Assembly: GCA_050732935.1 (NCBI GenBank)
Contig: JBOHRW010000150.1
Coordinates: 12,862-76,861 of the forward strand
Length of the DNA: 64,000 bases
From: Gemmatimonadota bacterium
GTDB taxonomy: Bacteria > Gemmatimonadota > Gemmatimonadetes > JACCXV01 > JAHWKZ01
Reading direction: 5' to 3'
Shown here: piece by piece, positions 12,608 to 50,063 of the stretch
How positions within the stretch are numbered: the first letter of the stretch is position 1
Layout of the letters: every line of letters begins with the position of its first letter
The notes under the pieces: generated by a model
What the model was told of the DNA's origin: nothing
Databases searched by the model: none
The model's input: only the letters and a program-made list of their open reading frames with translations
Position numbers and translations under genes: made by a program

Positions 12608-13233
12608 CTGCGCGCACCCGCTGCGGCTGGGCCCGCACCGAGCTCTCGATCCCCTACCACGACCAGGAGTGGGGCGTCCCGTGCCGGGACGACCGCCTCC
12701 TCTTCGAGCACCTGCTCCTGGACTGCGCGCAGGCCGGTCTCTCGTGGGAGATCATACTCAGGAAGCGCGAGGGCTATCGCCGGGCGTTCGCCGGGTTCGA
12801 TCCGGAGAAGGTGGCCCGCTTCAACCGGCGCAGCGTGCAGCGCCTCCTGAAGGATACCGGCATCGTCCGGAACCGTCAGAAGATCGAGAGCGCGATCGGG
12901 AACGCGCGCGCCTTCCTGGACGTGCAGGACGAGTTCGGTAGCTTCGCGGACTACCTGTGGGGCTTCGTCCATGACGAGCCGATCCGGAACCGCTGGCGGA
13001 AGATCGAGCAGATCCCCGCCCGGACGCCCTTGGCGGAGACCGTCAGCAAGAACCTCAAGGGGCGCGGGTTCTCGTTCGTCGGCCCCACGATCGTCTACGC
13101 GTTCCTGCAGGCGACCGGGGTCGTGAACGACCACCTGGTGGGCTGCTTCCGTCACGCGGAATGCGCGCGGCTCGCTCGCGGAACGAGGGGCGGAGCAGGA
13201 CCGCGCAGGCCTTCGAAGGGAGCGAGAGGATGA
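12604..13233 (+). CDS. tag: DNA-3-methyladenine glycosylase I
   Basis: CGWARTELSIPYHDQEWGVPCRDDRLLFEHLLLDCAQAGLSWEIIL...GPTIVYAFLQATGVVNDHLVGCF is a near-canonical Tag sequence including the zinc ligands. GTG start overlapping the upstream stop. Confidence 0.75.
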   Translation: MTARTRCGWARTELSIPYHDQEWGVPCRDDRLLFEHLLLDCAQAGLSWEIILRKREGYRRAFAGFDPEKVARFNRRSVQRLLKDTGIVRNRQKIESAIGNARAFLDVQDEFGSFADYLWGFVHDEPIRNRWRKIEQIPARTPLAETVSKNLKGRGFSFVGPTIVYAFLQATGVVNDHLVGCFRHAECARLARGTRGGAGPRRPSKGARG

Positions 13234-26250: not shown

Positions 26251-26299
26251 GCTGCTCTTCAGGTCTGGCTTCGCTCGGGTGGACCTCTATCTTCCGTGG

Positions 26300-27268
26300 A
26301 TGTTTCGAACCCGGATTCGTCGCCCGCAGGCGCTGTGGACGCTGGTGCTGGCGGCGCTCGCTCTGGTGCTCGCCTGCGGGGACGACGGAGGGCCGGAGCC
26401 CGTCGCAGGTGCGAGCTTCAGTGGAGAGCTGGCCGACAGCCTGGTCCGCCAGCTCGTGGCCTTCGGACCGCGGGTCCCGGGGACCGCGGCGCACGCAGAG
26501 GCGCTCGCCTGGATGACCGACTACCTGCGCGAGCGCACGGACGTCGTCGAACAGCGTCCGTTCACACACGTGACGCAGACCGGGGACACCCTCGAGCTGA
26601 CCAACCTGTGGGCTCAGTTCAATCCTCAGGCCGGGCAGCGCATCCTGGTGACCGGTCACTGGGACTCGCGGCCGGTGGCCGAGAAGGAGGCCGACCCGGC
26701 GAACCGCGACCGGCCGATCCCGGGAGCCAACGATGGCGGCTCGAGCGCGGCCGTGATCCTCGCCCTGGCCGATGTCCTGGCGGAGGATCCTCCCGCCATC
26801 GGCGTCGATCTCCTGCTGACCGATGGCGAGGACTGGGGCCACGACCCGGCCACCTTCAGCACGTTCGTCCCCGACATGTTCCTCGGAGCCAGGCACTTCG
26901 CCGCCAACGACGGCGCCGACTATCGGCCCCTGTTCGGCATCCTGCTGGACATGGTGGGGGAGGAGGGCGCGCGGTTCCCGATAGAGCAGAACAGTGAAGA
27001 GTTCGCCCCCGAGGTCGTGAGCCGGGTCTGGGAGGCCGCCGCGGACCTCGGCTATGGCGAGATCTTCGAATCGCGGGTCGGCCGGCCCGTCACCGACGAC
27101 CACGTCATCCTGAACCAGGCGGGAATCCGCACCATCGACATCATCGACTTCGACTACCCGTTCTGGCACACGCTGGAGGACACCCCCGACAAGCTGTCGG
27201 CGGCCACCATGGACGCTGTCGGCGACGTCGTCCTCGAAGTCATTCGTCGTCAGGCGGTAGGGGAGTAG
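26300..27268 (+). CDS. Glutaminyl-peptide cyclotransferase-like M28 zinc enzyme (lipoprotein)
   Basis: Lipobox LVLAALALVLAC. The motifs GHWDSRP...GANDGGSSAAVILALADVL...LLLTDGEDWG...GARHFA match animal-type QC motifs (HYDSK, GATDSAV, FFDGEE, GSRHLA). They do not match the aminopeptidase EExGLxGS motif. Confidence 0.65.
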   Translation: MFRTRIRRPQALWTLVLAALALVLACGDDGGPEPVAGASFSGELADSLVRQLVAFGPRVPGTAAHAEALAWMTDYLRERTDVVEQRPFTHVTQTGDTLELTNLWAQFNPQAGQRILVTGHWDSRPVAEKEADPANRDRPIPGANDGGSSAAVILALADVLAEDPPAIGVDLLLTDGEDWGHDPATFSTFVPDMFLGARHFAANDGADYRPLFGILLDMVGEEGARFPIEQNSEEFAPEVVSRVWEAAADLGYGEIFESRVGRPVTDDHVILNQAGIRTIDIIDFDYPFWHTLEDTPDKLSAATMDAVGDVVLEVIRRQAVGE

Positions 27269-28100: not shown

Positions 28101-29864
28101 ATGATTCACACCGCACCCACACCGGCGACGGCGACCGGACGGACGGCCGAGACGGCCCGCGGCCCCATCCGGAGCCGACCCACCATGACCGCCATTTTGC
28201 TCCAGGAAGGGCACATCACGGCCGACCAGATCTCGAGGGCGCTGGCGCGCCAGCGCTCCAACGGCCATCGGCTGGGCTACAACCTGATCGAGCTCGGGTT
28301 CGTCGATCCGCGAACGATCCGGGAGGTTCTCGAGCGTCAGCTGGGCGTCAAGGGGGTCGAGCTGGCCGCCCTCGAGACCGATCCCTCCGTCCTCAAGGTG
28401 ATTCCCGGCGAAATCGCCCGGCGATACGAGGTGTTCCCGATCCGCCGCCAGGGGGACACGATCGTCCTCGCCATGTGCAACCCGATCGACTGGATGGCGA
28501 TCGACGACCTCAAGTTCCTGACCGGCTACGAGATCGAGCCGCTGCTGGCGGACGAGTATTCAGTCATCGAGGCGATCGAGGCCCACTACGACGAGGACGA
28601 GAACTCGTACCAGAAGCTGCTCGACAACCTGGGGGAGTACGAGCTGGAGGTCATCGAGGAGGAGGAGGACGAAGATCCGACCGCCCTCGCCGCCCAGGTC
28701 GAGGCGGCGCCGGTCGTCAAGTTCATCAACTCGCTGCTGGCCGACGCCGTGAATCACGGCGCCTCGGACGTCCACATCGAGCCCTACGAGGACGAGCTCC
28801 GGATCCGCTACCGGGTCGACGGCGTGCTGCGCGAGACGCTGAGCCCGCCGCTCAAGATGAAGGCCGCGCTGATCTCGCGGATCAAGATCCTCGCGGACCT
28901 CAACATCGCCGAGCGGCGCTTCCCGCAGGACGGCCGCATCAAGCTCAAGATGGGGGATCGGGTCATCGATTTCCGCGTCTCCACGCTGCCCACCCTGTAC
29001 GGTGAGAAGATCGTGCTCCGGATCCTGGACGTCGGGCGGGTCGCGCTCGACCTGGAGGAGCTGGGTCTCTCCGAGGCGAGTCTCCAGGATCTGGTCCGTA
29101 GCGTGGAGTCGCCGTTCGGGATCCTGCTGGCGACCGGGCCGACCGGGTCGGGCAAGACGACGACCCTCTATTCGGCGCTGACCCGGCTCAACCAGCCGGG
29201 CGTCAACATCATGACGGTCGAGAACCCGGTCGAGTACAACCTCAAGGGGATCAACCAGGTCCAGGTACGCGAGGACATCGGGCTCGACTTCGCTCAGGCG
29301 CTGCGAGCGTTCCTGCGTCAGGACCCGAACATCATCATGGTCGGCGAGATCCGCGATCCCGAGACCGCCTCGATCGCCATCAAAGCCGCGCTGACTGGAC
29401 ATCTCGTCCTCTCTACGGTCCACACGAACGATGCACCATCGACGGTCAGCCGGCTGGTGGACATGGGCGTTCAGCCGTTTCTGGCGGCGAGCGCCCTCAA
29501 CTGCGTGGTGGCCCAGCGCCTCGTGCGACGGATCTGCGAGTCCTGCAAGCGCGCGCGGCGCTACCCGCGCGCCGTCCTCGAGGACGCCGGCTTTCCGGAG
29601 TCCGATCTCGGAGCCTCCTTCCACGAGGGCGCGGGTTGCGCGGAATGCGAGGAGACCGGCTACCGGGGGCGGATCGGCCTGTTCGAGGTCATGTCGATCA
29701 GCCGCCCGCTGCGGCGGCTGATCACCGAGCACGCCACCACCGAGGACATCCGCCGACAGGCGCTCGAGGACGGCATGATCACCCTGCGGGAGGACGGCCT
29801 CGGCAAGGTGAAGGCCGGGATCACCACACTCGACGAGGTGCTTCGTGAAACCGCTCTGGCCTGA
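28101..29864 (+). CDS. pilB: Type IV pilus assembly ATPase PilB (GspE family)
   Basis: GspII_E N-domain (EGHITADQISRAL...LIELGFVD), Walker A GPTGSGKTTTLYSAL, Asp box, His box, and a C-terminal tetracysteine CESC...CAEC. Confidence 0.9.
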   Translation: MIHTAPTPATATGRTAETARGPIRSRPTMTAILLQEGHITADQISRALARQRSNGHRLGYNLIELGFVDPRTIREVLERQLGVKGVELAALETDPSVLKVIPGEIARRYEVFPIRRQGDTIVLAMCNPIDWMAIDDLKFLTGYEIEPLLADEYSVIEAIEAHYDEDENSYQKLLDNLGEYELEVIEEEEDEDPTALAAQVEAAPVVKFINSLLADAVNHGASDVHIEPYEDELRIRYRVDGVLRETLSPPLKMKAALISRIKILADLNIAERRFPQDGRIKLKMGDRVIDFRVSTLPTLYGEKIVLRILDVGRVALDLEELGLSEASLQDLVRSVESPFGILLATGPTGSGKTTTLYSALTRLNQPGVNIMTVENPVEYNLKGINQVQVREDIGLDFAQALRAFLRQDPNIIMVGEIRDPETASIAIKAALTGHLVLSTVHTNDAPSTVSRLVDMGVQPFLAASALNCVVAQRLVRRICESCKRARRYPRAVLEDAGFPESDLGASFHEGAGCAECEETGYRGRIGLFEVMSISRPLRRLITEHATTEDIRRQALEDGMITLREDGLGKVKAGITTLDEVLRETALA

Positions 29865-29961
29865 CGTGGCGCGGACGGACGCCCTGGCGCCGAGCGACCC
29901 GGCTCCACACCTGCCGGACGGGACGAGCGACCTGGAGATGGATGCCCAGGATAGCTGTTCC

Positions 29962-31038
29962 ATGTCCGCGCTCCTGCGCGAGCTCGTGGAAGCCGGGGGC
30001 TCGGACCTCCACCTGACGGTGGGCCTCCCCCCACGGCTCAGGATCGACGGCGAGCTCGTGAACAGCCGGATTGCCGATCGCGCGCTGAGCCCCGAGCAGA
30101 CGCTGGCCCTCGCCAGCTCGCTCCTCAACGAGCGACAGCAGGCGGCGTTCGAGGCCACGAACGAGCTGGACTTCTCGTTCGGGATCGCCGGTCTGGCCCG
30201 GTTCCGCGCCAGCGTCTACCGCCAACGCGGGGCGGTGGGGGTCGCGATCCGCCAGATCCCTTACGAGATCCGGGGCTTCGACAGCCTTGGCCTGCCCGCC
30301 CACGTGGTCGACTTCGCGAAGCATCAGAACGGCCTGGTCCTAGTGACGGGGTCCACCGGCTCGGGGAAGTCGACCACCCTGGCGGCGCTGATCGATCGTA
30401 TCAACCACGAGCGCAAGGTCCACATCCTCACCATCGAGGATCCCATCGAGTTCGTGCACCACCATGGCCTGGCGATGGTGAACCAGCGCGAGGTGGGAAC
30501 CGATACGCGCTCCTTCGCGAGCGCGCTCAAGCACGCTCTGCGCCAGGACCCGGACGTCGTACTGATCGGGGAGATGCGCGACAACGAGACGATCGCCGCG
30601 GCGATCACGACCGCCGAGACCGGGCACCTCGTGCTGGCGACCCTGCACAGCAACTCGGCGGCCGAGTCGATCGACCGCATGATCGACGTCTTCCCGCCCG
30701 AGCAGCAGCCGCAGATACGCACGCAGCTCGCCTCCGTCCTCGAGGGGATCGTCACCCAGCAGCTGCTCCCGCGTATCGGCGGCGGGCGCGCCCTGGCGGC
30801 CGAGGTTCTCGTGGTGACCCCGGCCATACGGGCCCTCATCCGCGACGACAAGGCCCACCAGATCTACACCGCCATGCAGGCGGGCTCGAAGCACGGCATG
30901 CAGACCATGAACCACTCCCTGCTCGCGCTTCACCGCACGGGAGCCGTGAGCCGCGAGGAGATCCTGAGCCGGAGCGAGGATCCCGAAGAGCTGCGTCGGA
31001 TGATCCAGCTCGTCCCGGGCGGGTTCGACGGGAGCTGA
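29962..31038 (+). CDS. pilT: Twitching motility retraction ATPase PilT
   Basis: Start at the internal ATG MSALLRELVEAGGSDLHLTVGLPP. Walker A GSTGSGKSTTLAALI, and AIRALIRDDKAHQIYTAMQAGSKHGMQTMN matching the PilT AIRNLIRE motif. Confidence 0.9.
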   Translation: MSALLRELVEAGGSDLHLTVGLPPRLRIDGELVNSRIADRALSPEQTLALASSLLNERQQAAFEATNELDFSFGIAGLARFRASVYRQRGAVGVAIRQIPYEIRGFDSLGLPAHVVDFAKHQNGLVLVTGSTGSGKSTTLAALIDRINHERKVHILTIEDPIEFVHHHGLAMVNQREVGTDTRSFASALKHALRQDPDVVLIGEMRDNETIAAAITTAETGHLVLATLHSNSAAESIDRMIDVFPPEQQPQIRTQLASVLEGIVTQQLLPRIGGGRALAAEVLVVTPAIRALIRDDKAHQIYTAMQAGSKHGMQTMNHSLLALHRTGAVSREEILSRSEDPEELRRMIQLVPGGFDGS

Positions 31039-31040
31039 GC

Positions 31041-32240
31041 GTGCGGACATTTGTCTACAGGGCGCGCGCGGCGGACGGCACCAGCCAGTCCGGCGAGATC
31101 ACGGCCGGCAGCGAGGCCGAGGTCGCGGGTCAGCTCCGCAGCCGACGGCTAGTCGTGGTCAGCGTGAGGCCCAAGCCGCGCACGATCGAGATTTCCCTCA
31201 AGCGCGGACCGGGAACCAAGGATCTGGTCGTCTTCACCCGTCAGTTCGCGACGATGATCGGCGCCGGTCTGCCGCTGGTGCAGTCGCTGGACACGCTGGC
31301 CGCGCAGCAGAGCAAGCCTCGCGTCTCCGGGAAGATCCGCGCCGTGCTCCGCGAGGTGCAGGCGGGAGCCACGCTGGCCGACGCCATGCGGCGGCAGCGG
31401 GACTTCTTCGGCGAGATCTACGTCAGCATGATCGCCGCGGGCGAGGTCGGCGGCGTCCTCGACACGATCCTGAGTCGGCTGGCGGACTACCTGGAAGACG
31501 CGGCCCGTTTGAAGCGCAAGGTCCGTGGGGCGATGGTCTATCCGGTGACGGTCTTCGCGTTCGCCGGCATCGCCGTCTCGGTGCTCCTGATCTTCGTGAT
31601 CCCGACCTTCGCCCAGTTCTTCGTAGCCGCCGGTGTCCCGCTCCCTCTGCCGACCCGCATCGTGATCGCCGCCTCGAACCTCCTGCTCGCCTGGTGGTGG
31701 GCGGTGGCGGCGGGCATCGGCCTGGCGCTCTGGCTGGTCCGGGCCTGGTATCGGACGCCGGATGGACGGCTCGCGATCGACCGCTGGCTCCTCCGTGTCC
31801 CGGTCCTGGGGCCCGTACTGAGGAAAGCGGCCATCGCCCGCTTCAGCCGCACGCTGGGGTCGCTCGTGGAGAGCGGGGTCCCGATCCTCGAGGGGCTGGA
31901 GATCACCGCCCGGACCGCCGGGAACCGGGTCATCGAGGACGCGGTGCTCGCGAGCCGGGTTTCGATCGCCGGCGGCGACACGATCAGCGATCCGCTCCGC
32001 CGGAGCGGGGTCTTCCCGCCCATGGTCACCCAGATGATCAACGTCGGCGAGCACACCGGTGGGCTGGATGGCATGCTCGCCAAGATCTCCGACTTCTACG
32101 AGGACGAGGTCGAGGCCGCCGTGGGGGCGCTGACGTCGATCATCGAGCCGATCATGATCGTAGTGCTGGGAGCGATCGTGGGCGGAATGGTGGTGGCGAT
32201 GTATCTGCCGATCTTCGACCTCATCCAGACCGTGCAGTAG
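31041..32240 (+). CDS. pilC: Type IV pilus inner-membrane platform protein PilC (GspF family)
   Basis: Two GspF repeats (LATMIGAGLPLVQSLDTL and LGSLVESGVPILEGLEI) and three TM segments. Confidence 0.85.
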   Translation: MRTFVYRARAADGTSQSGEITAGSEAEVAGQLRSRRLVVVSVRPKPRTIEISLKRGPGTKDLVVFTRQFATMIGAGLPLVQSLDTLAAQQSKPRVSGKIRAVLREVQAGATLADAMRRQRDFFGEIYVSMIAAGEVGGVLDTILSRLADYLEDAARLKRKVRGAMVYPVTVFAFAGIAVSVLLIFVIPTFAQFFVAAGVPLPLPTRIVIAASNLLLAWWWAVAAGIGLALWLVRAWYRTPDGRLAIDRWLLRVPVLGPVLRKAAIARFSRTLGSLVESGVPILEGLEITARTAGNRVIEDAVLASRVSIAGGDTISDPLRRSGVFPPMVTQMINVGEHTGGLDGMLAKISDFYEDEVEAAVGALTSIIEPIMIVVLGAIVGGMVVAMYLPIFDLIQTVQ

Positions 32241-32435: not shown

Positions 32436-32719
32436 GGTGGCGGGCTCACTTCCTTTTCTTGCGACCATGGGACTTTTCCTCCTCCTTGAGCTCTTCGATG
32501 AGTCCGTCCAGTTCCTCGAAGCGCGCATCCCAGACCTGGCGATAGCGCTCGAGCCAATCGTGAAGCTGGCGAAGAGGTTGCGCGCGGTGGGCGTGGCTTC
32601 GCCCTGAGCGTGCCGCTTGCCGAGCGCCGTGATCAGCGTAATCCTCGTGCTCGAAGGAGCTGTCCTGTGCTGTGGGGTGCGCGGCCAGGGTGGCCTTGAA
32701 TCTTGAGGGGAGGAGGTCC

Positions 32720-33526
32720 ATGAAGCACAGCCTGATCCTCGCCGTGGGGGTTACCACGATCCTGTCGGCATCGCCCGGACGGGCCCAGGACCCGCACGAG
32801 CACGGCGCGCCCGATTCAGCCAGGATCGGGACCGTCCACTTCGCGACCTCGTGTGACGCCGCGACACAGCCGGACTTCGATCGCGCGGTGGCGCTTCTCC
32901 ACTCGTTCTGGTTCGGCGCCTCCATCGACGGGTTCCAGGGGGTGCTCTCGGAGGATCCCGGCTGCGCCATGGCGTGGTGGGGGATCGCGATGGCGGAGTG
33001 GGGCAATCCGTTCGGGGGGATCCGATCGACCGCGGCGCTCGAGCGCGGAGCGGCGGCGGTCCAGAAGGCGGAGCTGGAGCGGCTGCGGCAGGTCCTCGAA
33101 GGCAGGGACGACGACTACTGGGCCGGGCAGGTCGAGATCCAGCGCCGGGTGGCGAGCGCGTGGCTGGCGCAGGCCGAGGGTCGCGAAGAAGAGGCGGTGG
33201 AGCTCCTTCGGTCCGCTGCCGACATGGAGGACGGGACCGAGAAGAGCGCCATCACCCCAGGCCCGCTGGCCCCGGCGCGCGAGCTCCTGGGCGAGATGCT
33301 GGTCGAGCAGGACCGGCCGGAGGATGCTCTGGTGGAGTTCGAGGCGAGCCTCCAGAGCGGGCCCGACCGGTTCCGCTCCCTCTATGGGGCGGCCCGCGCG
33401 GCCGAGCTCGGCGGCGACCTTCAGAAGACCCGGCTCCACTACGACGAGTCGCGGCGGCTGTGCCAGGGGGGTGACGGCCCCGAGCGCGACGAGCTCGTGA
33501 CCGCGCGGGCGTTTCTCGGGCGGTGA
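32720..33526 (+). CDS. Exported TPR-like protein (conserved hypothetical)
   Basis: A strong RBS (ggaggaggt) and a signal peptide MKHSLILAVGVTTILSASPGRA|QDP. The HFATSCDAATQPDFDRAVALLHSFWF...DPGCAMAWWGIAM motif is typical of a conserved TPR-like exported family. Confidence 0.6.
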   Translation: MKHSLILAVGVTTILSASPGRAQDPHEHGAPDSARIGTVHFATSCDAATQPDFDRAVALLHSFWFGASIDGFQGVLSEDPGCAMAWWGIAMAEWGNPFGGIRSTAALERGAAAVQKAELERLRQVLEGRDDDYWAGQVEIQRRVASAWLAQAEGREEEAVELLRSAADMEDGTEKSAITPGPLAPARELLGEMLVEQDRPEDALVEFEASLQSGPDRFRSLYGAARAAELGGDLQKTRLHYDESRRLCQGGDGPERDELVTARAFLGR

Positions 33527-34611
33527 ACCCGCGACGTGCGTTCGGAGGGGATGTGAACCGCTGGCTTCCTTCGCTGCTCCTTCTCGGCGCCGGCTGCGCG
33601 CTTTACGGCGACCGGTCCGGCCCCGGCGCGGTGCCCGATCCCGAGAGTTCGCTCGAGCAGGCCGTCGCCACGATCACGGCCGAGGACATGCTGGACCGGA
33701 TCGCGTTCCTGGCGAGCGACGAGATGGGTGGGCGCGCGACCCCCAGTCCGGGGCTGGAGATGGCGGCCGAGTACCTGGCGGAGGAGTTTCGAGCGCTGGG
33801 GCTCGACCCGGGTGGCGACGACGGGACCTTCCTGCAGCGGTACCCGCTCCCGGTTCAGGTCTCCGACTCGGCGAGCGGGACGACGACCGTCCGCACGGCT
33901 CACCCGCCGAACGTTGTCGCCATCCTGCCGGGCCGCGACCCGATCCTGCGTGACTCCTACGTCGTTTTCAGCGCGCACATGGATCACGTGGGGATGGGCA
34001 CGCCCGATGCCTCCGGCGACTCCATCTACAACGGGGCCGACGACGACGCCTCGGGAACGGCGGCGCTGGTCGAGGTGGCGGAGGCGTTCGCGGCTCTTCC
34101 CGAGCCGCCCGGCCGGTCGCTCGTCTTTCTCGCCGTCAGCGGAGAGGAGAAGGGGCTCCTCGGCTCGCACTGGTTCAGCGAGCACCCTCCGATGCCGATC
34201 TCGTCGATCGTCGCCAACCTCAACGTCGACATGATCGGCCGCAATGCGCCCGACTCGATCGTCGTGATCGGCCAGGAGTACTCGTCCCTTGGCCCTCTCG
34301 TGCGCGAGGTCGCGATCCGCAGAGACGGCCTGGGCCTCACCGTGATCGCCGATCCATGGCCTGAGCAGCGCTTCTTCTTCCGGAGCGACCATTTCAACTT
34401 CGCCCGCAAGGAGATCCCCGCCCTGTTCTTCTTCGCCGGCACCCATGAGGACTACCACCGCCCTTCGGACGAGGTGGAGAAGATCGATCCGGACAAGGCG
34501 TCACGTGTGGCGCGCCTCGTGTTCCACACCGCTCTTGCCATCGCGGAGGCCGCCGAGCCCCCGCGCTGGACTCCAGAAGGTCTCGAGGCGATCCGGGCCC
34601 TGACGCCGTAG
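33523..34611 (+). CDS. M28 family aminopeptidase lipoprotein
   Basis: Lipobox LLLLGAGC. HMDHVG, DDDASG and FLAVSGEEKGLLGS are the canonical M28 zinc and Glu motifs. Confidence 0.8.
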   Translation: MNPRRAFGGDVNRWLPSLLLLGAGCALYGDRSGPGAVPDPESSLEQAVATITAEDMLDRIAFLASDEMGGRATPSPGLEMAAEYLAEEFRALGLDPGGDDGTFLQRYPLPVQVSDSASGTTTVRTAHPPNVVAILPGRDPILRDSYVVFSAHMDHVGMGTPDASGDSIYNGADDDASGTAALVEVAEAFAALPEPPGRSLVFLAVSGEEKGLLGSHWFSEHPPMPISSIVANLNVDMIGRNAPDSIVVIGQEYSSLGPLVREVAIRRDGLGLTVIADPWPEQRFFFRSDHFNFARKEIPALFFFAGTHEDYHRPSDEVEKIDPDKASRVARLVFHTALAIAEAAEPPRWTPEGLEAIRALTP

Positions 34612-43543: not shown

Positions 43544-44587
43544 ATGATTCTTCGACGATCCAGCACCTCGATTGCCGTCGACCTGGGGTCGCGGCACATC
43601 CGTCTCGTGGCCATCGAGAGGAAAAGCTCGAGGCCGCGTCTCGTGGCTTACGAGCGCGAGCCCATCGAGCCCGAGACCGTCGTGGCCGGGGAGATCATGG
43701 ACTTCCACGGATTGGCCGAGGCGCTGCGGCGGGTCCGCGAGCGTTCCGGGATCCGCCGACGGCCGGCCGCCACCTCGGTATCCGGTCGGGATGTCATCGT
43801 CAAGCGCGTTCGGATGGACCGCATGCGGGAAGCCGAGGCGCGGCAGATCATGCGCTGGGAGGCGGAGCAGCACGTTCCCTTCGACATCGACAGCGTGAGC
43901 ATCGATTTCGAGATCCTCGATCCCGAGGCCGACGGTCGGCAGATGGAGGTCGTCATCGTCGCCGCCAAGAAGGACCTCGTGGAGAGCCGCATGCGGCTGC
44001 TCGACGAGGGCGGCTTCGAGCCCGCGATCATCGACATCGACGCCTTCGCCGTTCAGACCACATTCGAGCACGGCCACGAACGCGCGCGCTATGGCACCTT
44101 CTGTCTCGTCAACGTCGGCTACGAGATCACCAGCGTGAGCCTGGTCCGTGACGGGCGTCCGCTGTTGACTCGCGACATCGCGACGGGGGAGCGTCGGTTC
44201 GAGGAGGCCCTGGTCGAGACGTTGGGCGTGACGATGGAGGAGGCCCGCCAGCGGCTCCGCGACCCGGACGGCCCGGACCCGCTGGCCCGGCACACGCTGG
44301 CATCGGTCGTCGACGGGTTCGTGACCCCGATCGAACGTGCCCGCGGGTATCTCTCCACGAGCGAGGGCGAAGCCCGGGAGCTGGACGAGGTCGTGCTCTC
44401 CGGAAGCGGGGCCGGACTTCCGGGTCTCCGGAACGCCTTGGCGGACCGGCTCGGGGTGCCGGTCACGATCCTCGATCCACTGACCCAGCTGGAAGTCGAC
44501 CCGGCGATCCGGGCGAGCCTGCTCGACGTGGGGGCCCGGGCCTCGCTGGCCATCCCGGTCGGCCTGGGACTGCGAGAGGGAGGATGA
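43544..44587 (+). CDS. pilM: Type IV pilus assembly protein PilM (actin-like ATPase fold)
   Basis: IAVDLGSRHIRLVAIE...IIDIDAFAV...VLSGSGAGLPGL are FtsA/actin-like motifs. A gagaggag RBS precedes the start. Confidence 0.85.
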   Translation: MILRRSSTSIAVDLGSRHIRLVAIERKSSRPRLVAYEREPIEPETVVAGEIMDFHGLAEALRRVRERSGIRRRPAATSVSGRDVIVKRVRMDRMREAEARQIMRWEAEQHVPFDIDSVSIDFEILDPEADGRQMEVVIVAAKKDLVESRMRLLDEGGFEPAIIDIDAFAVQTTFEHGHERARYGTFCLVNVGYEITSVSLVRDGRPLLTRDIATGERRFEEALVETLGVTMEEARQRLRDPDGPDPLARHTLASVVDGFVTPIERARGYLSTSEGEARELDEVVLSGSGAGLPGLRNALADRLGVPVTILDPLTQLEVDPAIRASLLDVGARASLAIPVGLGLREGG

Positions 44588-44591
44588 AGCC

Positions 44592-45257
44592 GTGGCGCGC
44601 GTGAACCTGATCCCGCAGGCTCGGCGACGGGATATGCGGAGGCGGCGCGTCGCCCTGCCCCAGGGGCGCCCCGGCGCCGAGCTGATCCTGGGCGCTTTCG
44701 TTCTGATCCTCCTGATCGGTTCGGTGGCTGCCTTCGCGGTCGAGCGCCGGAGCCTGTCCGAGGCGCGGGCCGCGGTCGTCGTGGCCCAGGCCGACAGCGC
44801 GCGGCTGCACGGGGTGGTGGAGCAGGTCGAGCGCATCCAGCGCGCTCAGACCCGCATGGCGGAGCGAATCGAGCTCCTGGAGAGCGTGATCGACGGCAGG
44901 CTCTACTGGCCGCGCCTCATGGAGACCCTGTCGCGGACGCTGCCTGCCTACGTGTGGCTGGAGCGGGTCGATCGGCAGGAGCCGGGGGCCGGGCGGATCC
45001 AGATCGCGGGCGCGTCGTTCGCGAACGCCGCCATCACCGACTTCATGCATGGCCTGGAGGCTTCGCCGGAGCTGCGGGACGTTGCCCTGGTCGAGGTCAG
45101 TCGGAGCCTGCGGGACTCCCTGGATGTCCAGCAGTTCACGGTCGTGGCGACGGAGGAAGATCGGCGGATCCCGGACGTGGCGCCGGACTCGACGACCGTA
45201 GACGGCCGCCCCGAGATCGATCCGGTGGAGAGACCTTCAAATGGAGGGGAGAGATGA
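44592..45257 (+). CDS. pilN: Type IV pilus assembly protein PilN
   Basis: VNLIPQARRR followed by a single TM and coiled coil. Sits between pilM and the pilO-pilQ genes. Confidence 0.75.
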   Translation: MARVNLIPQARRRDMRRRRVALPQGRPGAELILGAFVLILLIGSVAAFAVERRSLSEARAAVVVAQADSARLHGVVEQVERIQRAQTRMAERIELLESVIDGRLYWPRLMETLSRTLPAYVWLERVDRQEPGAGRIQIAGASFANAAITDFMHGLEASPELRDVALVEVSRSLRDSLDVQQFTVVATEEDRRIPDVAPDSTTVDGRPEIDPVERPSNGGER

Positions 45258-45775
45258 GGCGCCCGAACGCTCGCCTGCACTGGCTGGGGCTGGTTCTCGC
45301 GGTCACTCTCGCGACGACGTGCGAGCCCGACGAGGTGCAGAACTCCGCCAACGAGGCGGTGATCATGGTGCAGTTCTTCGCCTCGCGGACGAACCGCGTG
45401 CCGGTGGCGGGCGTGCGCATGATCGTGGAGTCGCCGGGCGACCAGCAGGACCAGACGCAGGGCCGGCCCTACAACGGACCCGACATCCTGGCCATCTCCG
45501 GCGACGACGGCATCGCGATCGCGCGTGTCTTTCCAGGGTTCGACGATTCCGGTCAGAACGGTGAAGGCGGAGGCGACGAGGAGGGCTCGCAGGGCCAGGG
45601 GCCGGAGAACCCGCTCGACCTGCCCCCACCGCTCATCTTCGCGGACGTGGCGATCACGTTCATCCATCAGGGGGAGATCGTCCCGTTCATCGCGAGCGGC
45701 TTCACGATCGGCTCCGGACTGCTCTACGACCTGGGCCCCATCTTTCTCGACGAGCTCGGGCTGACCGTGGAGTGA
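45254..45775 (+). CDS. Hypothetical lipoprotein inserted between pilN and pilO
   Basis: Lipobox LAVTLATTC. A low-complexity acidic/Gly segment DDSGQNGEGGGDEEGSQGQG. ATGA overlap with pilN and GTGA overlap with pilO. Confidence 0.5.
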   Translation: MRRPNARLHWLGLVLAVTLATTCEPDEVQNSANEAVIMVQFFASRTNRVPVAGVRMIVESPGDQQDQTQGRPYNGPDILAISGDDGIAIARVFPGFDDSGQNGEGGGDEEGSQGQGPENPLDLPPPLIFADVAITFIHQGEIVPFIASGFTIGSGLLYDLGPIFLDELGLTVE

Positions 45776-46443
45776 TGCTCGGTCTCGATTCCCCCGACCG
45801 TCAGCGGATGGCGCTGTTCGGCCTGTTGCTCGTGGGCGGCGCGGTGCTGTTCCACCGCTACGTGTGGTCGCCCCTCCACGACGACCGGATCGCGACGGAG
45901 ACGCATCTCGCGCGCCTCGATCGGACCAACCGTCAGGCGCGGGCGCTGACCCAGCCCACTCGCATCTCCGAGCTCGAGCGGCTCGAGAGTGAGTACGAGG
46001 TGGCGCTGGCGGCATACGAGCCTCTGTTCCCTCACCGCTCCGAGGCCATGGGACTGCTCGCCGGTGTCTCCAGCGCGGCTCTGTCCGCCGACGTCGAGAT
46101 CGTGAGCTTCGCCCCGCGGGAGAAGATCGAGGGGAAGGTGCTCGTGGAGATTCCCTACGAAGTGGAGGTCCAGGGCTCGTATCACGACATCGGTCGGTTC
46201 CTGGCCGGCGTGATCAACCTGCCGCAGATCGTTCGACCGGAGGTCATCAACCTGGCGGGCGTCTTCGACGACGACCCCGATCGCGGGGAGCTCGAGCATC
46301 AGGTCCTGGGGACGCTGGTGCTCTCGGCGTACGTGCGCGCGTCGCAGGAGATCCGCATCGAGCCGGCTCGCAACGCGGCGCTCCCGGAGTCGTCCGGCGG
46401 AGTCCACGCGGTCCGTAGCGCGGGAGGGCCCGATGAAGGCTAG
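45772..46443 (+). CDS. pilO: Type IV pilus assembly protein PilO
   Basis: N-terminal TM (LFGLLLVGGAVLF), a coiled coil, and a C-terminal ferredoxin-like region (YEVEVQGSYHDIGRFLAGVINLPQIV). Confidence 0.7.
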   Translation: MMLGLDSPDRQRMALFGLLLVGGAVLFHRYVWSPLHDDRIATETHLARLDRTNRQARALTQPTRISELERLESEYEVALAAYEPLFPHRSEAMGLLAGVSSAALSADVEIVSFAPREKIEGKVLVEIPYEVEVQGSYHDIGRFLAGVINLPQIVRPEVINLAGVFDDDPDRGELEHQVLGTLVLSAYVRASQEIRIEPARNAALPESSGGVHAVRSAGGPDEG

Positions 46444-46951
46444 CGCTGTCCTGCTCTTCCTCGTGGTCCTCTCGGTCCCGGCGCATGCCTTGGCCCAGCA
46501 GGAGATCGAGCCGGTGGAGGTGAAGGCCCTGGCCTCCCCCGTCACCCCGGCGGCCTACGTCTCGGACGGTCGGCGGGATCCGTTCCTGCCGCTCACCGGG
46601 ATCTACGCCTCGCAGGAGGACGGCGCACCGCGCCTCGAGCAGCTCGAGCTGACCGGGATCTTCATGGGCGCGCCCGGCAACAGCCTGGTCGTGCTCGAGG
46701 ATCACACCCGCCGCGGACACTTCGTGCGGGTCGGGGAGTCGCTGGGTAACGCGCGGCTGCTCGAGATCCTGCCCGACGCGGCCGTCTTCGAGGTCGATGG
46801 CTACGGGATCCTCCGTCGCGACACCCTGCGCCTGGTGCCGGATCGGCGGACCGCCGACGAACCGCCGGAGTCGTCCCCGGACCCGCCACCCGCAGGATCC
46901 CCGCCGGCGCGGCCTGAGCCGCCCCAGCCGCAAGCCGGGGAGGGCCCGTGA
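46433..46951 (+). CDS. pilP: Type IV pilus assembly protein PilP (secretin-binding)
   Basis: Signal peptide ...AHALA|QQE. RRDPFLP (the PilP DPF motif). A Pro-rich C-terminal tail. Confidence 0.65.
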   Translation: MKASAVLLFLVVLSVPAHALAQQEIEPVEVKALASPVTPAAYVSDGRRDPFLPLTGIYASQEDGAPRLEQLELTGIFMGAPGNSLVVLEDHTRRGHFVRVGESLGNARLLEILPDAAVFEVDGYGILRRDTLRLVPDRRTADEPPESSPDPPPAGSPPARPEPPQPQAGEGP

Positions 46952-48915
46952 TCGGCCGGCTCGGCCTTCCGCTGATCGTGGCGGCGCTCCTGGGCGCCGA
47001 GGCGAAGCCGCTCGGGGGCACCCCGTCCCCGCAGACCGGCCGCGCGACCGAGGTGGTGCGCGGTTTCCGCGTGGTCAGCGACGGAGACGTCACCCGTATC
47101 GTCATCGAGACCACGGGCGCCGTCGCCTATCGCGACGACTTCCAGCCGCTGCCGCCCCGGCTCACGATCGAGCTTCTGGGCGTCCGCCCCGGGCTGCCGC
47201 TCCAGGAGTACGACGGGATCCGGCGCGGAGGCGTGCGCTACGTAGTCGCCAGCGCGCCGTCGCCGGACCGCGTCAGGCTCGACATCGCGCTGACGGGAGT
47301 CACCGCCTACGCGGTCTATCAGCAGGGATCGCAGGTCCATGTCACCTTCGACAACCCCGGCGCGGCATTCAGCGCCTTCGTCGCGGATGGCGACGCGCGG
47401 GAGGCGCCCGGTGGCAGCGTGACGAGGGTCTCCTCGTCTCCGTCCTCCTACGGGACGGCGCTCCAGGGGTCGGACCCCGGTCTGGACGGCGTCGACGGCG
47501 AGCCGATCTCGCTCTCCTTCCAGGGCGCCGACATCGAGACCGTGATCCGCGCCTTCGGCGAGATCAGCGGTCGTTCGATCGTCGCCGGGACGGGAGCGCG
47601 CGGCATCCGCATCACCGCCGACATCCGCGACCGCCCCTGGGACGAGGCGCTGGTGGCCGTCATGCACGCCAACGGCCTCGAGGTGCGCCATCAGAACGGC
47701 ATCATCCGCGTCGACACCGTCCAGAACCTGCGCGAGACCGAGCAGCTCGTGGATCTCGGCACGATCGTGCTCCAGCTCAACTACATCGCGGCCGCGGACG
47801 TGGTCCCGGTCCTGGCGCCGCTCAAGTCCGAGCGCGGCAGCGTCACCGCCGACGCCAAGACGAACTCGCTGGTCATCACCGACATCCCCACCCGCGTGCG
47901 GCGGATCACCGACATCGTGCGCGAGCTCGACGTCCAGACCCCGCAGGTCACGATCAAGGCCAAGATCGTATTCGTGAACAAGGTCGACCTGCGGGATCTG
48001 GGGGTGAAGTGGCGGATGGAGAACCTGCGCGACCCGACGGTGGACACCCACGTGCTCGCCAACACCGAGGGCACGCTGGCGGATCCGTTCCTCGACCTGT
48101 CACTCGGAACGCTGGCCTCGGGCCTCAACATCGGCGGTCTCCTGCAGGCGCTCGAGCAGCGCGAGCTGGCGGACATCCAGGCCGAGCCCCAGACGACGGT
48201 GCTCAACAACCTGCCGGCCGAGGTATTCGTGGGGGAGCGAACGCCCATCCGCGTCCTCGACGTGGGCGCCGACACGCCCGAGGCCCGGGCCAGCGTGGAG
48301 CTGATCGAGACCGGCATCATCCTCAGGGTCACCCCGCACATCACCGCCAACGGCAAGGTGCTCATGGAGCTCCACGCCGAGCGCTCGGGCGTGGCGATCT
48401 CCGACCCGGCTATCGGCGTGACGTTCAACACGCAACGCGCGACCTCGCAGATCCTGGTGGACGACGGCGAGACCGCGGTCATCGGCGGGCTCACCGTGGA
48501 GGATGTGTCGACCGTTCGGCGTGGCATCCCCATCCTCAAGGACATCCCGATTCTGGGCGCGCTGTTTCGGAGCGAGCGGAAACGCGAGGAGAAGCGCGAC
48601 CTGCTGATCTTCGTGACGCCCTACGTCATGCCGGTGGACGATCCCGAGCCGGAGACCGTCTCGGCGGTCTGCCTCGAGGACCAGCCCTGGTACCGGAGCG
48701 ACCAGGCGATCGTCCACAACGGGGAGCGGTGGCTCCGCTACGGATCGCCGCGGCGGATGAATCCGCGCGGCCTGGTGGCGGTCGGCAATTTCCGCGGCGT
48801 GCCGATCTACACGGCGGTGGAGACGGCGGCCCTCGAGATCTACCTGCCGCTCTGCTCGGAGGGCTTGTTCCAGGCCTATCGGATGGTCCCCGAGCTGCGG
48901 GGGACGAACGGATGA
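46948..48915 (+). CDS. pilQ: Type IV pilus secretin PilQ with AMIN and N-domains
   Basis: N-domains SFQGADIETVIRAFGEISGRSIVAG. Secretin core VTPHITANGKVLMEL...AVIGGL...GIPILKDIPILGALFRSERKREEKRDLLIFVTPYVM. An extra 90 aa with two Cys follows the secretin domain. Confidence 0.85.
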   Translation: MIGRLGLPLIVAALLGAEAKPLGGTPSPQTGRATEVVRGFRVVSDGDVTRIVIETTGAVAYRDDFQPLPPRLTIELLGVRPGLPLQEYDGIRRGGVRYVVASAPSPDRVRLDIALTGVTAYAVYQQGSQVHVTFDNPGAAFSAFVADGDAREAPGGSVTRVSSSPSSYGTALQGSDPGLDGVDGEPISLSFQGADIETVIRAFGEISGRSIVAGTGARGIRITADIRDRPWDEALVAVMHANGLEVRHQNGIIRVDTVQNLRETEQLVDLGTIVLQLNYIAAADVVPVLAPLKSERGSVTADAKTNSLVITDIPTRVRRITDIVRELDVQTPQVTIKAKIVFVNKVDLRDLGVKWRMENLRDPTVDTHVLANTEGTLADPFLDLSLGTLASGLNIGGLLQALEQRELADIQAEPQTTVLNNLPAEVFVGERTPIRVLDVGADTPEARASVELIETGIILRVTPHITANGKVLMELHAERSGVAISDPAIGVTFNTQRATSQILVDDGETAVIGGLTVEDVSTVRRGIPILKDIPILGALFRSERKREEKRDLLIFVTPYVMPVDDPEPETVSAVCLEDQPWYRSDQAIVHNGERWLRYGSPRRMNPRGLVAVGNFRGVPIYTAVETAALEIYLPLCSEGLFQAYRMVPELRGTNG

Positions 48916-50063
48916 GTGGGTTGGCGATCCGCTGCGCCCGCGGGCCGGCCCCGCCGGCCGCCCGGCTCGTCGCCGTCGGTCTCGTCGCCTGGCTCGCGGT
49001 GTCGGGTTGCGACGACGCGCTCGTCGACGACGCACCCGGGGGCGGACATCCGGACCGTCTGGTGGCGATCTCGGGTCAGACCCTGGTCGCCCAGCTCGGC
49101 GCCTCGACGGGCGCCTTCCTGCGGCTCAAGGTGGTGGACCGCCGGGCGCGCCCGGTCAGGGCCGCCGTCGTGCGATACGTGGTTCTCTCCGGCGCCGGCG
49201 TCTTCTCGTCGGACAGCACGCTCACCGACGACCAGGGGTTCACGCAGGTCGAGTTCCGGCCGTTCACGGCCGGGACCGCGATCGTCGAGGCGCGGACCGA
49301 GACCGCCGACGGGGTCCTGGGCCTCCAGTTCCAGATCCAGGTGCTCAGCGACCCGCGCGAGGCCGCTGTCCTGGAAAAGACCGGGGGCGACGGCCAGAGC
49401 GGACCGGCTGGCTCCTTCCTGGCCGATCCGCTCGAGGTGCGGGTGCTGAACCCGGACGGACTGCCGGTGGTCGAGCATCCCGTCACGTTCACGCTCGAGC
49501 AGGCGCCGGGGCCGTCGGCGGGCGTAGCTTCAGCGCGCGAAGGCACGACCGCGGGCCAGATCCAGGTCGTGACCGACGCCGCCGGGCTCGCCCGCGCCTT
49601 CCTGCGGCTCGGGACCCGGGTCGGGGCCTATTCGGTCGCCGCCCGCGCGCTGTCAGGCACGGGAGCGGATCCGACCGCCTTCGAGGTGACGTTCACCGCC
49701 ACCGCCACCGCCGCCCCCGCGGCCCGGCTCGTGGTGATCGCGGGCGGCGACCAGACGGCCGTGATCGACACCCTGAACGCCCCCGACAGCCCCGACTTCC
49801 GGGGCCGCGACGCCAACCCGTTCGTGGCCCAGGCGCTGGACGCCTTCGACCAGCCGGCGGCCGGCGTGGCGGTCCAGTGGGTGGTCTCGGACGGCGGAGG
49901 AACGCTGCTCGCCACGATCACAGTGACCGACGCGTTCGGGCTAGCCCAGAACCAGCTCTTCGAGGCGACCGAGGGCCGGAACGCGGTCGTGGCGATCGCG
50001 GCCGGCACGAACGCGGTCGAGTTCGTGGTGACGGGGGTAGTGCACCAGCCGGAAGGGGAGTAA
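48912..50063 (+). CDS. Lipoprotein with tandem bacterial Ig-like (Big-1-type) repeats, coupled to pilQ
   Basis: Lipobox LAVSGC. Repeated beta-rich modules (AQLGASTGAFLRLKVVDRRARPVRAAVVRYVVLSGAGVF... and VEHPVTFTLEQAPGPSAGVASAR...). ATGA overlap with the pilQ stop. Confidence 0.55.
   Translation: MSGLAIRCARGPAPPAARLVAVGLVAWLAVSGCDDALVDDAPGGGHPDRLVAISGQTLVAQLGASTGAFLRLKVVDRRARPVRAAVVRYVVLSGAGVFSSDSTLTDDQGFTQVEFRPFTAGTAIVEARTETADGVLGLQFQIQVLSDPREAAVLEKTGGDGQSGPAGSFLADPLEVRVLNPDGLPVVEHPVTFTLEQAPGPSAGVASAREGTTAGQIQVVTDAAGLARAFLRLGTRVGAYSVAARALSGTGADPTAFEVTFTATATAAPAARLVVIAGGDQTAVIDTLNAPDSPDFRGRDANPFVAQALDAFDQPAAGVAVQWVVSDGGGTLLATITVTDAFGLAQNQLFEATEGRNAVVAIAAGTNAVEFVVTGVVHQPEGE

Follow-up and report, generated by a model that had tools for sequence, protein, structure and literature searches.

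A predicted lipoprotein encoded between pilN and pilO in type IVa pilus operons of Gemmatimonadota

Can the PilMNOP module, which is treated as a fixed set of four proteins in type IVa pili (T4aP) and, via GspL/M/C, in type II secretion systems (T2SS), accommodate a further protein? The question is raised by a 64,000-nucleotide (nt) stretch of DNA from a Gemmatimonadota bacterium (assembly GCA_050732935.1, contig JBOHRW010000150.1, forward-strand positions 12,862 to 76,861), referred to below as the window, in which an open reading frame (ORF) of 173 codons, here named X, lies between pilN and pilO of a pilMNOPQ operon. The initial annotation of this DNA had described X as a lipoprotein gene overlapping both of its neighbours. 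A search of the literature found neither a description of any gene lying between pilN and pilO nor work on the pilus operons of Gemmatimonadota or Glassbacteria. The operon around X comprises the following features:

43544–44587, + strand: pilM (PF11104, E=1.9e-58; TIGR01175)
44592–45257, + strand: pilN (PF05137, E=2.6e-15), its stop codon overlapping the start of X
45243–45253, + strand: Shine-Dalgarno-like sequence GGAGGGGAGAG, within the 3' end of pilN, 0–10 nt before the ATG of X
45254–45775, + strand: gene X, predicted lipoprotein of 173 amino acids (aa), unannotated family, recognised from the ORF, its junctions and its homologues
45772–46443, + strand: pilO (PF04350, E=1e-17), its GTG overlapping the stop codon of X
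46433–46951, + strand: pilP of the PilP/GspC type, 172 aa (profile, GRRDPF motif, NF041515 at 2e-5)
46948–48915, + strand: pilQ, secretin with AMIN, N0, Secretin_N and Secretin domains (Pfam and NCBIfam)
48912–50063, + strand: Ig-like (Big_1) lipoprotein, 383 aa, its ATG overlapping the pilQ stop codon (ATGA); topA is next

The junctions can be read directly from the sequence. The ATG of X at 45254 overlaps the stop codon of pilN as ATGA (45254–45257), and the TGA that closes its 173 codons (45773–45775) is overlapped as GTGA by the pilO start codon, GTG at 45772; a second possible pilO start, an ATG at 45775, would turn this junction into TGATG. Because the window is GC-rich (68.5%) and the mechanical ORF list holds many spurious ORFs, among them long non-genes, X needed testing as a gene. 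The same circumstance, along with the lack of a known family, speaks for taking X as a mis-called ORF or as a passenger gene unrelated to pili. The GC content of X by codon position (0.69/0.44/0.90) is of the coding type, however, and follows the pattern of pilM, pilN, pilO, pilP, pilQ and topA. Against its orthologues in three related loci from metagenome-assembled genomes (MAGs) X has ratios of nonsynonymous to synonymous substitution (dN/dS) of 0.37, 0.21 and 0.18, equal to or lower than those of pilN (0.33–0.39) and pilO (0.30–0.35) in the same comparison. The mechanical list extends the frame back to a GTG at 44954; in the alignment all homologues begin at the ATG. The overlapping ORF of the initial annotation is confirmed by its sequence, by the Shine-Dalgarno-like site before its ATG, by the GC content of 0.90 at the third codon position, by dN/dS and by homologues as a real gene under purifying selection and not an ORF artefact.

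A word-indexed search returned 77 homologues at 47–100% identity, all 'hypothetical', those with a named source all coming from Gemmatimonadota MAGs; the X protein of the window itself is deposited as ACREMD_09345. The whole family counts 165 proteins, annotated as 'hypothetical' or just as 'Lipoprotein', and scans of the window protein assigned it to no Pfam or NCBIfam family (no Pfam match at E≤1). By these searches X can be considered the founder of an undescribed and unannotated protein family.

The next point is whether X takes the place of a known component. Proteobacterial PilP is an inner-membrane lipoprotein that binds PilN and PilO, and X resembles it, and the HR domain of GspC, in being small, periplasmic, membrane-anchored and, by prediction, rich in β-strands. 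It differs in showing no sequence relationship to PilP (PF04351), a bona fide member of which is encoded two genes downstream. The window PilP has no Pfam match; a profile built with its orthologues (A4) matches Myxococcus xanthus PilP (3jc8/3jc9) at E=3.6e-12, and in a test of PilP family membership it was this neighbouring gene, not X, that matched 3jc8. The idea of X as a diverged PilP was rejected, as it has no Pfam or NCBIfam match and its hhalign comparison with the PilP alignment gives a probability of 0.5%. Since PilP is present, X appears to be a true addition to the operon rather than a replacement. In every locus inspected, with or without X, the N-terminal segment of PilP is hydrophobic and lacks a lipobox Cys. 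In contrast to the lipoprotein of Proteobacteria, this PilP may have an uncleaved helix as its anchor; GspC, to which the weak NF041515 match points, is held in this way.

Occurrence of X among pil operons

Among GTDB species, each represented by one genome, X was found in 27 loci, all from Gemmatimonadota MAGs, and in all of them the order pilM-pilN-X-pilO-pilP-pilQ is kept as far as the contig reaches (tblastn with the window's six proteins). The same order is present in the metagenome locus L040 and in contigs fetched via the homologues P0071 and P0033; all 28 related Gemmatimonadota loci show it. These X-bearing relatives span 44–92% PilM identity to the window, and all keep X between pilN and pilO; the insertion seen by the initial annotation is conserved, X occupying the same slot in every relative that has it. 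The identity of X ranges from 41 to 84% across loci, parallel to that of PilN and PilO. The overlap of pilN with X measures 4 nt in 18 of 35 loci and 8 nt in nine others, and the X-pilO junction varies from −26 to +33 nt in the 26 loci where it could be measured, 16 of them lying within −4 to +1 nt. None of the search matches is a natural fusion protein in which X is joined to PilN, PilO or PilP.

As a control, metagenomes were scanned with PilM, not X, as the anchor, which gave 80 loci. X is present in L040 only (PilM 61% identical); in the other 79 loci (PilM 40–45%) two family hidden Markov models, applied at E≤10 to some 5 kb of sequence on either side, detected no X-like ORF. There pilO follows pilN after 0–9 nt in 54 of 59 measurable loci; one gap is of 86 nt, and four negative distances are an artefact of longest-ORF calling. 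PilM proteins near-identical to those of this X-less group are named 'Gemmatimonadales bacterium' at NCBI. X is absent from this sister branch with its canonical pilMNOPQ operon, and present in every locus of the window's branch, including L036, whose PilM (44%) is as distant as that of the X-less group. The initial annotation had held that absence from close relatives, with pilN read straight into pilO, would tell against it; such an arrangement is confined to the Gemmatimonadales loci, the X-bearing relatives at 44–92% PilM identity all keep the gene in its slot, and the annotation is not refuted. The view that X stands in for a missing lipid anchor of PilP finds no support, PilP having no lipobox in the X-less loci either.

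The family also reaches beyond this neighbourhood. No more than 31 clusters, made up of small lipoprotein-like proteins and one repeat protein, were retrieved when a profile was run exhaustively against 1.84 billion representatives; the distant homologues of X are small lipoproteins of 20–29% identity, alignable over their full length. They too are encoded in pil operons, with PilM only 25–31% identical. Some cluster members are named Candidatus Glassbacteria or Glassiibacteriota, which we take to be a class of Gemmatimonadota in GTDB. Two Glassbacteria contigs (L009, L120) read pilM-pilN-X-pilO-pilP-pilQ followed by the gene of a giant Big_1 protein, and four others (L007, L121, L122, L037) have a fused PilM-PilN, then X, pilO, a PilP-like gene and pilQ. 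The fused proteins, of 526–574 aa, belong to low-GC lineages (L007 3254–4975, L121 4256–5974, L122 3107–4828, L037 6473–8053). Three of these four operons are preceded by genes for a protein with MshEN and Bac_DnaA domains, a response regulator and a PAS histidine kinase, and a type IX secretion system sorting domain is encoded in neighbouring genes in two of the four contigs.

The slot of X within pilMNOPQ operons and its coupling are shared by over 35 loci of three or more divergent lineages, and the overlaps of its ends suggest co-transcription. The lineage specificity suggested by the initial annotation stands as far as the absence from Gemmatimonadales goes; the same slot in Glassbacteria and in the lineages with fused PilM-PilN indicates a family older and wider than one clade. 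Taken together, the X-less sister branch, the Glassbacteria and the fusion-type homologues form a pattern that favours an old component lost in Gemmatimonadales; transfer of the whole operon is also possible. For a passenger gene or a mis-called ORF the occupation of one slot in operons with so divergent PilM proteins is hard to explain, and no family member lies outside a pil operon among the contexts fetched. With 165 homologues that share an invariant lipobox Cys, and with a confidently predicted fold, this explanation is very improbable and effectively refuted.

Predicted anchor and fold of the X protein

The X protein can be divided as follows:

45254–45322, + strand: signal peptide and lipobox, residues 1–23 (LATT↓C), the Cys23 codon at 45320–45322, helix 7–20 modelled
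45323–45352, + strand: acidic, Asn-rich segment after the Cys, EPDEVQNSAN, in which D26, N30 and N33 are invariant; predicted local distance difference test (pLDDT) below 50 at residues 23–30
45353–45538, + strand: first half of a β-sandwich, strands 35–42, 55–59, 78–81 and 87–92, with a CarboxypepD_reg-like GV..VE...D..G motif
45539–45601, + strand: acidic Gly/Gln-rich low-complexity loop FDDSGQNGEGGGDEEGSQGQG, residues 96–116, pLDDT 43–55, with alignment gaps
45602–45772, + strand: GPxNPLDLPPP motif and second half of the sandwich (129–138, 141–153, 157–164), from conservation and the model

The protein begins with MRRPNARLHWLGLVLAVTLATTC, and its signal peptide, MRRPNARLHWLGLVLAVTLATT, combines an Arg-rich start with the hydrophobic helix 7–20, a layout shared by all aligned homologues. 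Cys23 is invariant in the 46 aligned homologues (alignment A1) as well as in the wide alignment A2, and the residue before it (position −1 of the lipobox, for which the pattern is [LVI][ASTVI][GAS]C) is Ala, Ser or Gly in 135 of the 149 family members scored; X of the window and its closest relatives have an atypical Thr there. Lipidation of the family is a prediction well supported by these sequence patterns; the window's own site is slightly atypical, and X of the window, with the LAVTLATTC of the initial annotation, is a putative lipoprotein.

An AlphaFold2 model built from the 46 homologues (mean pLDDT 77, predicted template modelling score 0.65) shows the signal helix, a low-confidence but conserved stretch after the Cys, and one β-sandwich of seven strands interrupted by a disordered loop at about residues 96–116. 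The fold is predicted to be a transthyretin- or CarboxypepD_reg-like sandwich, seven-stranded as in prealbumin. The acidic Gly-rich stretch, which the initial annotation had taken for a linker, is present; in the model it is a loop inside the sandwich, between strands 87–92 and 129–138. It varies in length and sequence and is far shorter in the distant homologues.

The likeness to known folds is a general one. CarboxypepD_reg (PF13620) stays below its Pfam threshold, with weak matches in two of 20 family members (best E=0.0016), and a sequence profile search of the PDB gave only a chance match (E=0.86). Foldseek of the model against the PDB returned nothing at E≤0.001, just generic transthyretin-like or dioxygenase sandwiches, with no pilotin or other T4P/T2SS structure among the neighbours. 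The structures that X resembles, the transthyretin-like domain of carboxypeptidase D (5aq0), the N-terminal extension of SusC (9hfj) and Kustc1130 (6hif_Y), represent a generic fold class. From CarboxypepD_reg domains X is set apart by the long disordered loop that splits its sandwich, by its own N-terminal and GPxNPLDLPPP motifs, by the predicted lipid anchor and by a genomic context that, among those fetched, is always a pil operon. Conservation in the wide alignment is limited to Cys23, a few Gly, one Val and Glu59; nothing in this pattern hints at an active site, and it fits a scaffold rather than an enzyme.

Possible role of X

The reading preferred here, to which roughly an even chance is given, is that X is a membrane-anchored periplasmic accessory subunit of the T4aP machine, made together with PilN and PilO. 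On the pilMNOPQ mRNA the translation of X would be coupled to that of pilN, and the translation of pilO to that of X, so that X would be made in step with both. After export the protein would be cut at Cys23 and lipidated, and the short conserved acidic segment would hold it at a membrane, more likely the inner one, beside the transmembrane helices of PilN and PilO. Its single β-sandwich could then attach to the ring that PilN and PilO, with or without PilP, form in the periplasm and act there as a spacer or scaffold without enzymatic activity, the conserved segment after the Cys and the GPxNPLDLPPP motif being candidate contact sites and the variable acidic loop projecting, solvent-exposed, into the periplasm. 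Judging by gene position, coupling and rate of co-evolution, X may be structurally part of the alignment complex, as the initial annotation proposed; the lipidation, membrane site, PilN/PilO binding and requirement of X in pilus assembly are likewise putative. As an accessory of the pilus machine X is well motivated but unproven.

If X were an outer-membrane lipoprotein it could serve the secretin, as a pilotin or a stabiliser of PilQ, a job done elsewhere by the tetratricopeptide repeat (TPR) lipoproteins PilF, Tgl and PilW of Neisseria, or by PilW of Thermus. X is indeed a small predicted lipoprotein in a secretin-containing operon, PilP here, having no lipobox, is not lipidated, and a canonical TPR lipoprotein pilotin was not seen in the window's pil cluster, where the TPR protein at 32672–33526 has a signal peptide and no lipobox Cys. 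In every lineage, however, X lies between the inner-membrane genes pilN and pilO and not beside pilQ; a closely similar PilQ of the AMIN type is present in the Gemmatimonadales, which manage without X, and it is a Big_1/Ig-like lipoprotein that is coupled to pilQ, with or without X. The residue after the lipobox Cys (position +2) is Asp in 101 of 149 family members (68%). Asp at this position is the inner-membrane retention signal in E. coli; lipoproteins of this phylum may be sorted by other rules, which leaves some room for an outer-membrane site. Gene position and the common Asp weakly favour the inner membrane, and a helper of the secretin seems unlikely.

A different part for X is suggested by its charge. 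The mature protein of the window has a net charge of −19 and no Lys, the family mean being −13; the family is strongly acidic. X might be a periplasmic modulator present in non-stoichiometric amounts, either a cell-wall- or cation-binding spacer adapting the PilNO ring to the envelope of this lineage, or a factor that controls how the pilus extends and retracts. Besides the acidity and the variable acidic loop, this would agree with a machine that works without X in the sister lineages. Acidity is consistently higher in the X-bearing loci for PilQ and for the periplasmic portions of PilN and PilP, and in most cases for PilO (net −4 to −34, with one PilO at +7); in the X-less loci L101, L051 and L049 the same parts have net charges of +7 to −13. 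For PilM, which is cytoplasmic, the two groups do not differ in acidity. This difference may point to the envelope or the habitat rather than to X. The invariable slot and the translational coupling to either neighbour speak instead for stoichiometric production with PilN and PilO, and no sugar-, peptidoglycan- or metal-binding family was detected in X by the Pfam and NCBIfam scans. A modulator of this kind also seems unlikely.

Several points weigh against X as a subunit held at the inner membrane beside PilN and PilO. The site of the window reads LATT↓CEPDE, with Glu and not Asp at +2 in addition to the Thr at −1. Asp at +2 may merely mirror the acidic composition of the family, and it is also found in the Big_1 lipoprotein beside pilQ (C-D-D). 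Complementarity of charge between the acidic X and PilN, PilO or PilP was considered and rejected, as all of them are acidic in the X-bearing loci. The generic fold says nothing on the partner of X. Finally, the sister Gemmatimonadales build the same operon without X, so the core machine does not need it.

Among described systems the nearest precedent for a lineage-specific protein encoded inside pilM-Q is, by analogy, PilW of Thermus thermophilus. Its gene lies between pilO and pilQ (pilMNOWQ), in the pilP slot of a system without PilP, and by its published description the protein resides in the outer membrane, is required to localise PilQ and has no homologues in model organisms (PMC6325625). 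X is likewise a lineage-restricted extra protein within the pilM-Q operon of a non-proteobacterial T4aP/competence system. The analogy drawn in the initial annotation is a loose one: in a comparison made by description, X opens a new slot between pilN and pilO where PilW fills that of pilP, PilP is kept, and X is a predicted lipoprotein with a small β-sandwich. With the pilotins and secretin-associated proteins of T4P and T2SS (PilF/Tgl/Neisseria PilW; TsaP; GspS/AspS) X has in common that it is an accessory, lineage-variable and, by prediction, lipid-anchored protein accompanying a secretin system; it differs in its predicted all-β fold, in containing no TPR or LysM domain in Pfam scans and in not adjoining pilQ.

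A fifth protein encoded in the middle of the module, its place kept across lineages with such distant PilM proteins, would make the alignment module more plastic than proteobacterial models suggest, and as the slot is conserved across deep divergence the finding is more than a curiosity. The X family is a concrete candidate to be placed in in situ maps of non-model pilus machines; it could also be given a name and a profile model and be used as a marker of operon type. Every carrier of X found is an uncultured MAG or a metagenome contig, which makes functional tests hard. A bolder proposal, put forward only tentatively, is that X is the seventh dedicated subunit of a distinct 'Gemmatimonadota/Glassbacteria-type' T4aP, forming with PilN and PilO a ring of lipid-anchored β-sandwiches; X would be ancestral to these lineages, in view of the shared slot at 20–29% identity, and would have been lost secondarily in Gemmatimonadales. 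If this were true, the supposedly universal PilMNOP subcomplex would, in some of the FCB-related bacteria, be built on a different and older plan.

The surrounding pilus locus

The window contains a complete T4aP locus. Apart from the operon of X its pil cluster includes:

28101–29864, + strand: PilB
29845–31038, + strand: PilT
31041–32240: PilC

PilS, PilR and a pilin are encoded as well, and probable minor pilin genes are recognised by slot only, the same slot being occupied in related loci by N_methyl/GspH genes. On longest-ORF calls the genes of the PilB and PilT-like ATPases overlap by about 20 nt (29845–29864). Two M28 peptidases and the TPR protein interleave the cluster (26279–27268, 32672–33526 and 33523–34611, + strand), one of the peptidases having an LLGAG↓C lipobox.

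The slot after pilQ is also worth mentioning. In the window it holds the Big_1 lipoprotein, with an LAVSG↓C lipobox and Big_1/MG4 Ig-like domains, which may be secretin-associated. The co-occurrence of X with this protein was considered and rejected, as an Ig-like lipoprotein stands at this place in X-less loci too. A Big_1 protein is found there in L001 and L003 and one of 1335 aa in the Glassbacteria contigs L009 and L120, and in the X-less Gemmatimonadales the slot holds a different Ig-like lipoprotein, with the lipobox WAC↓ET.

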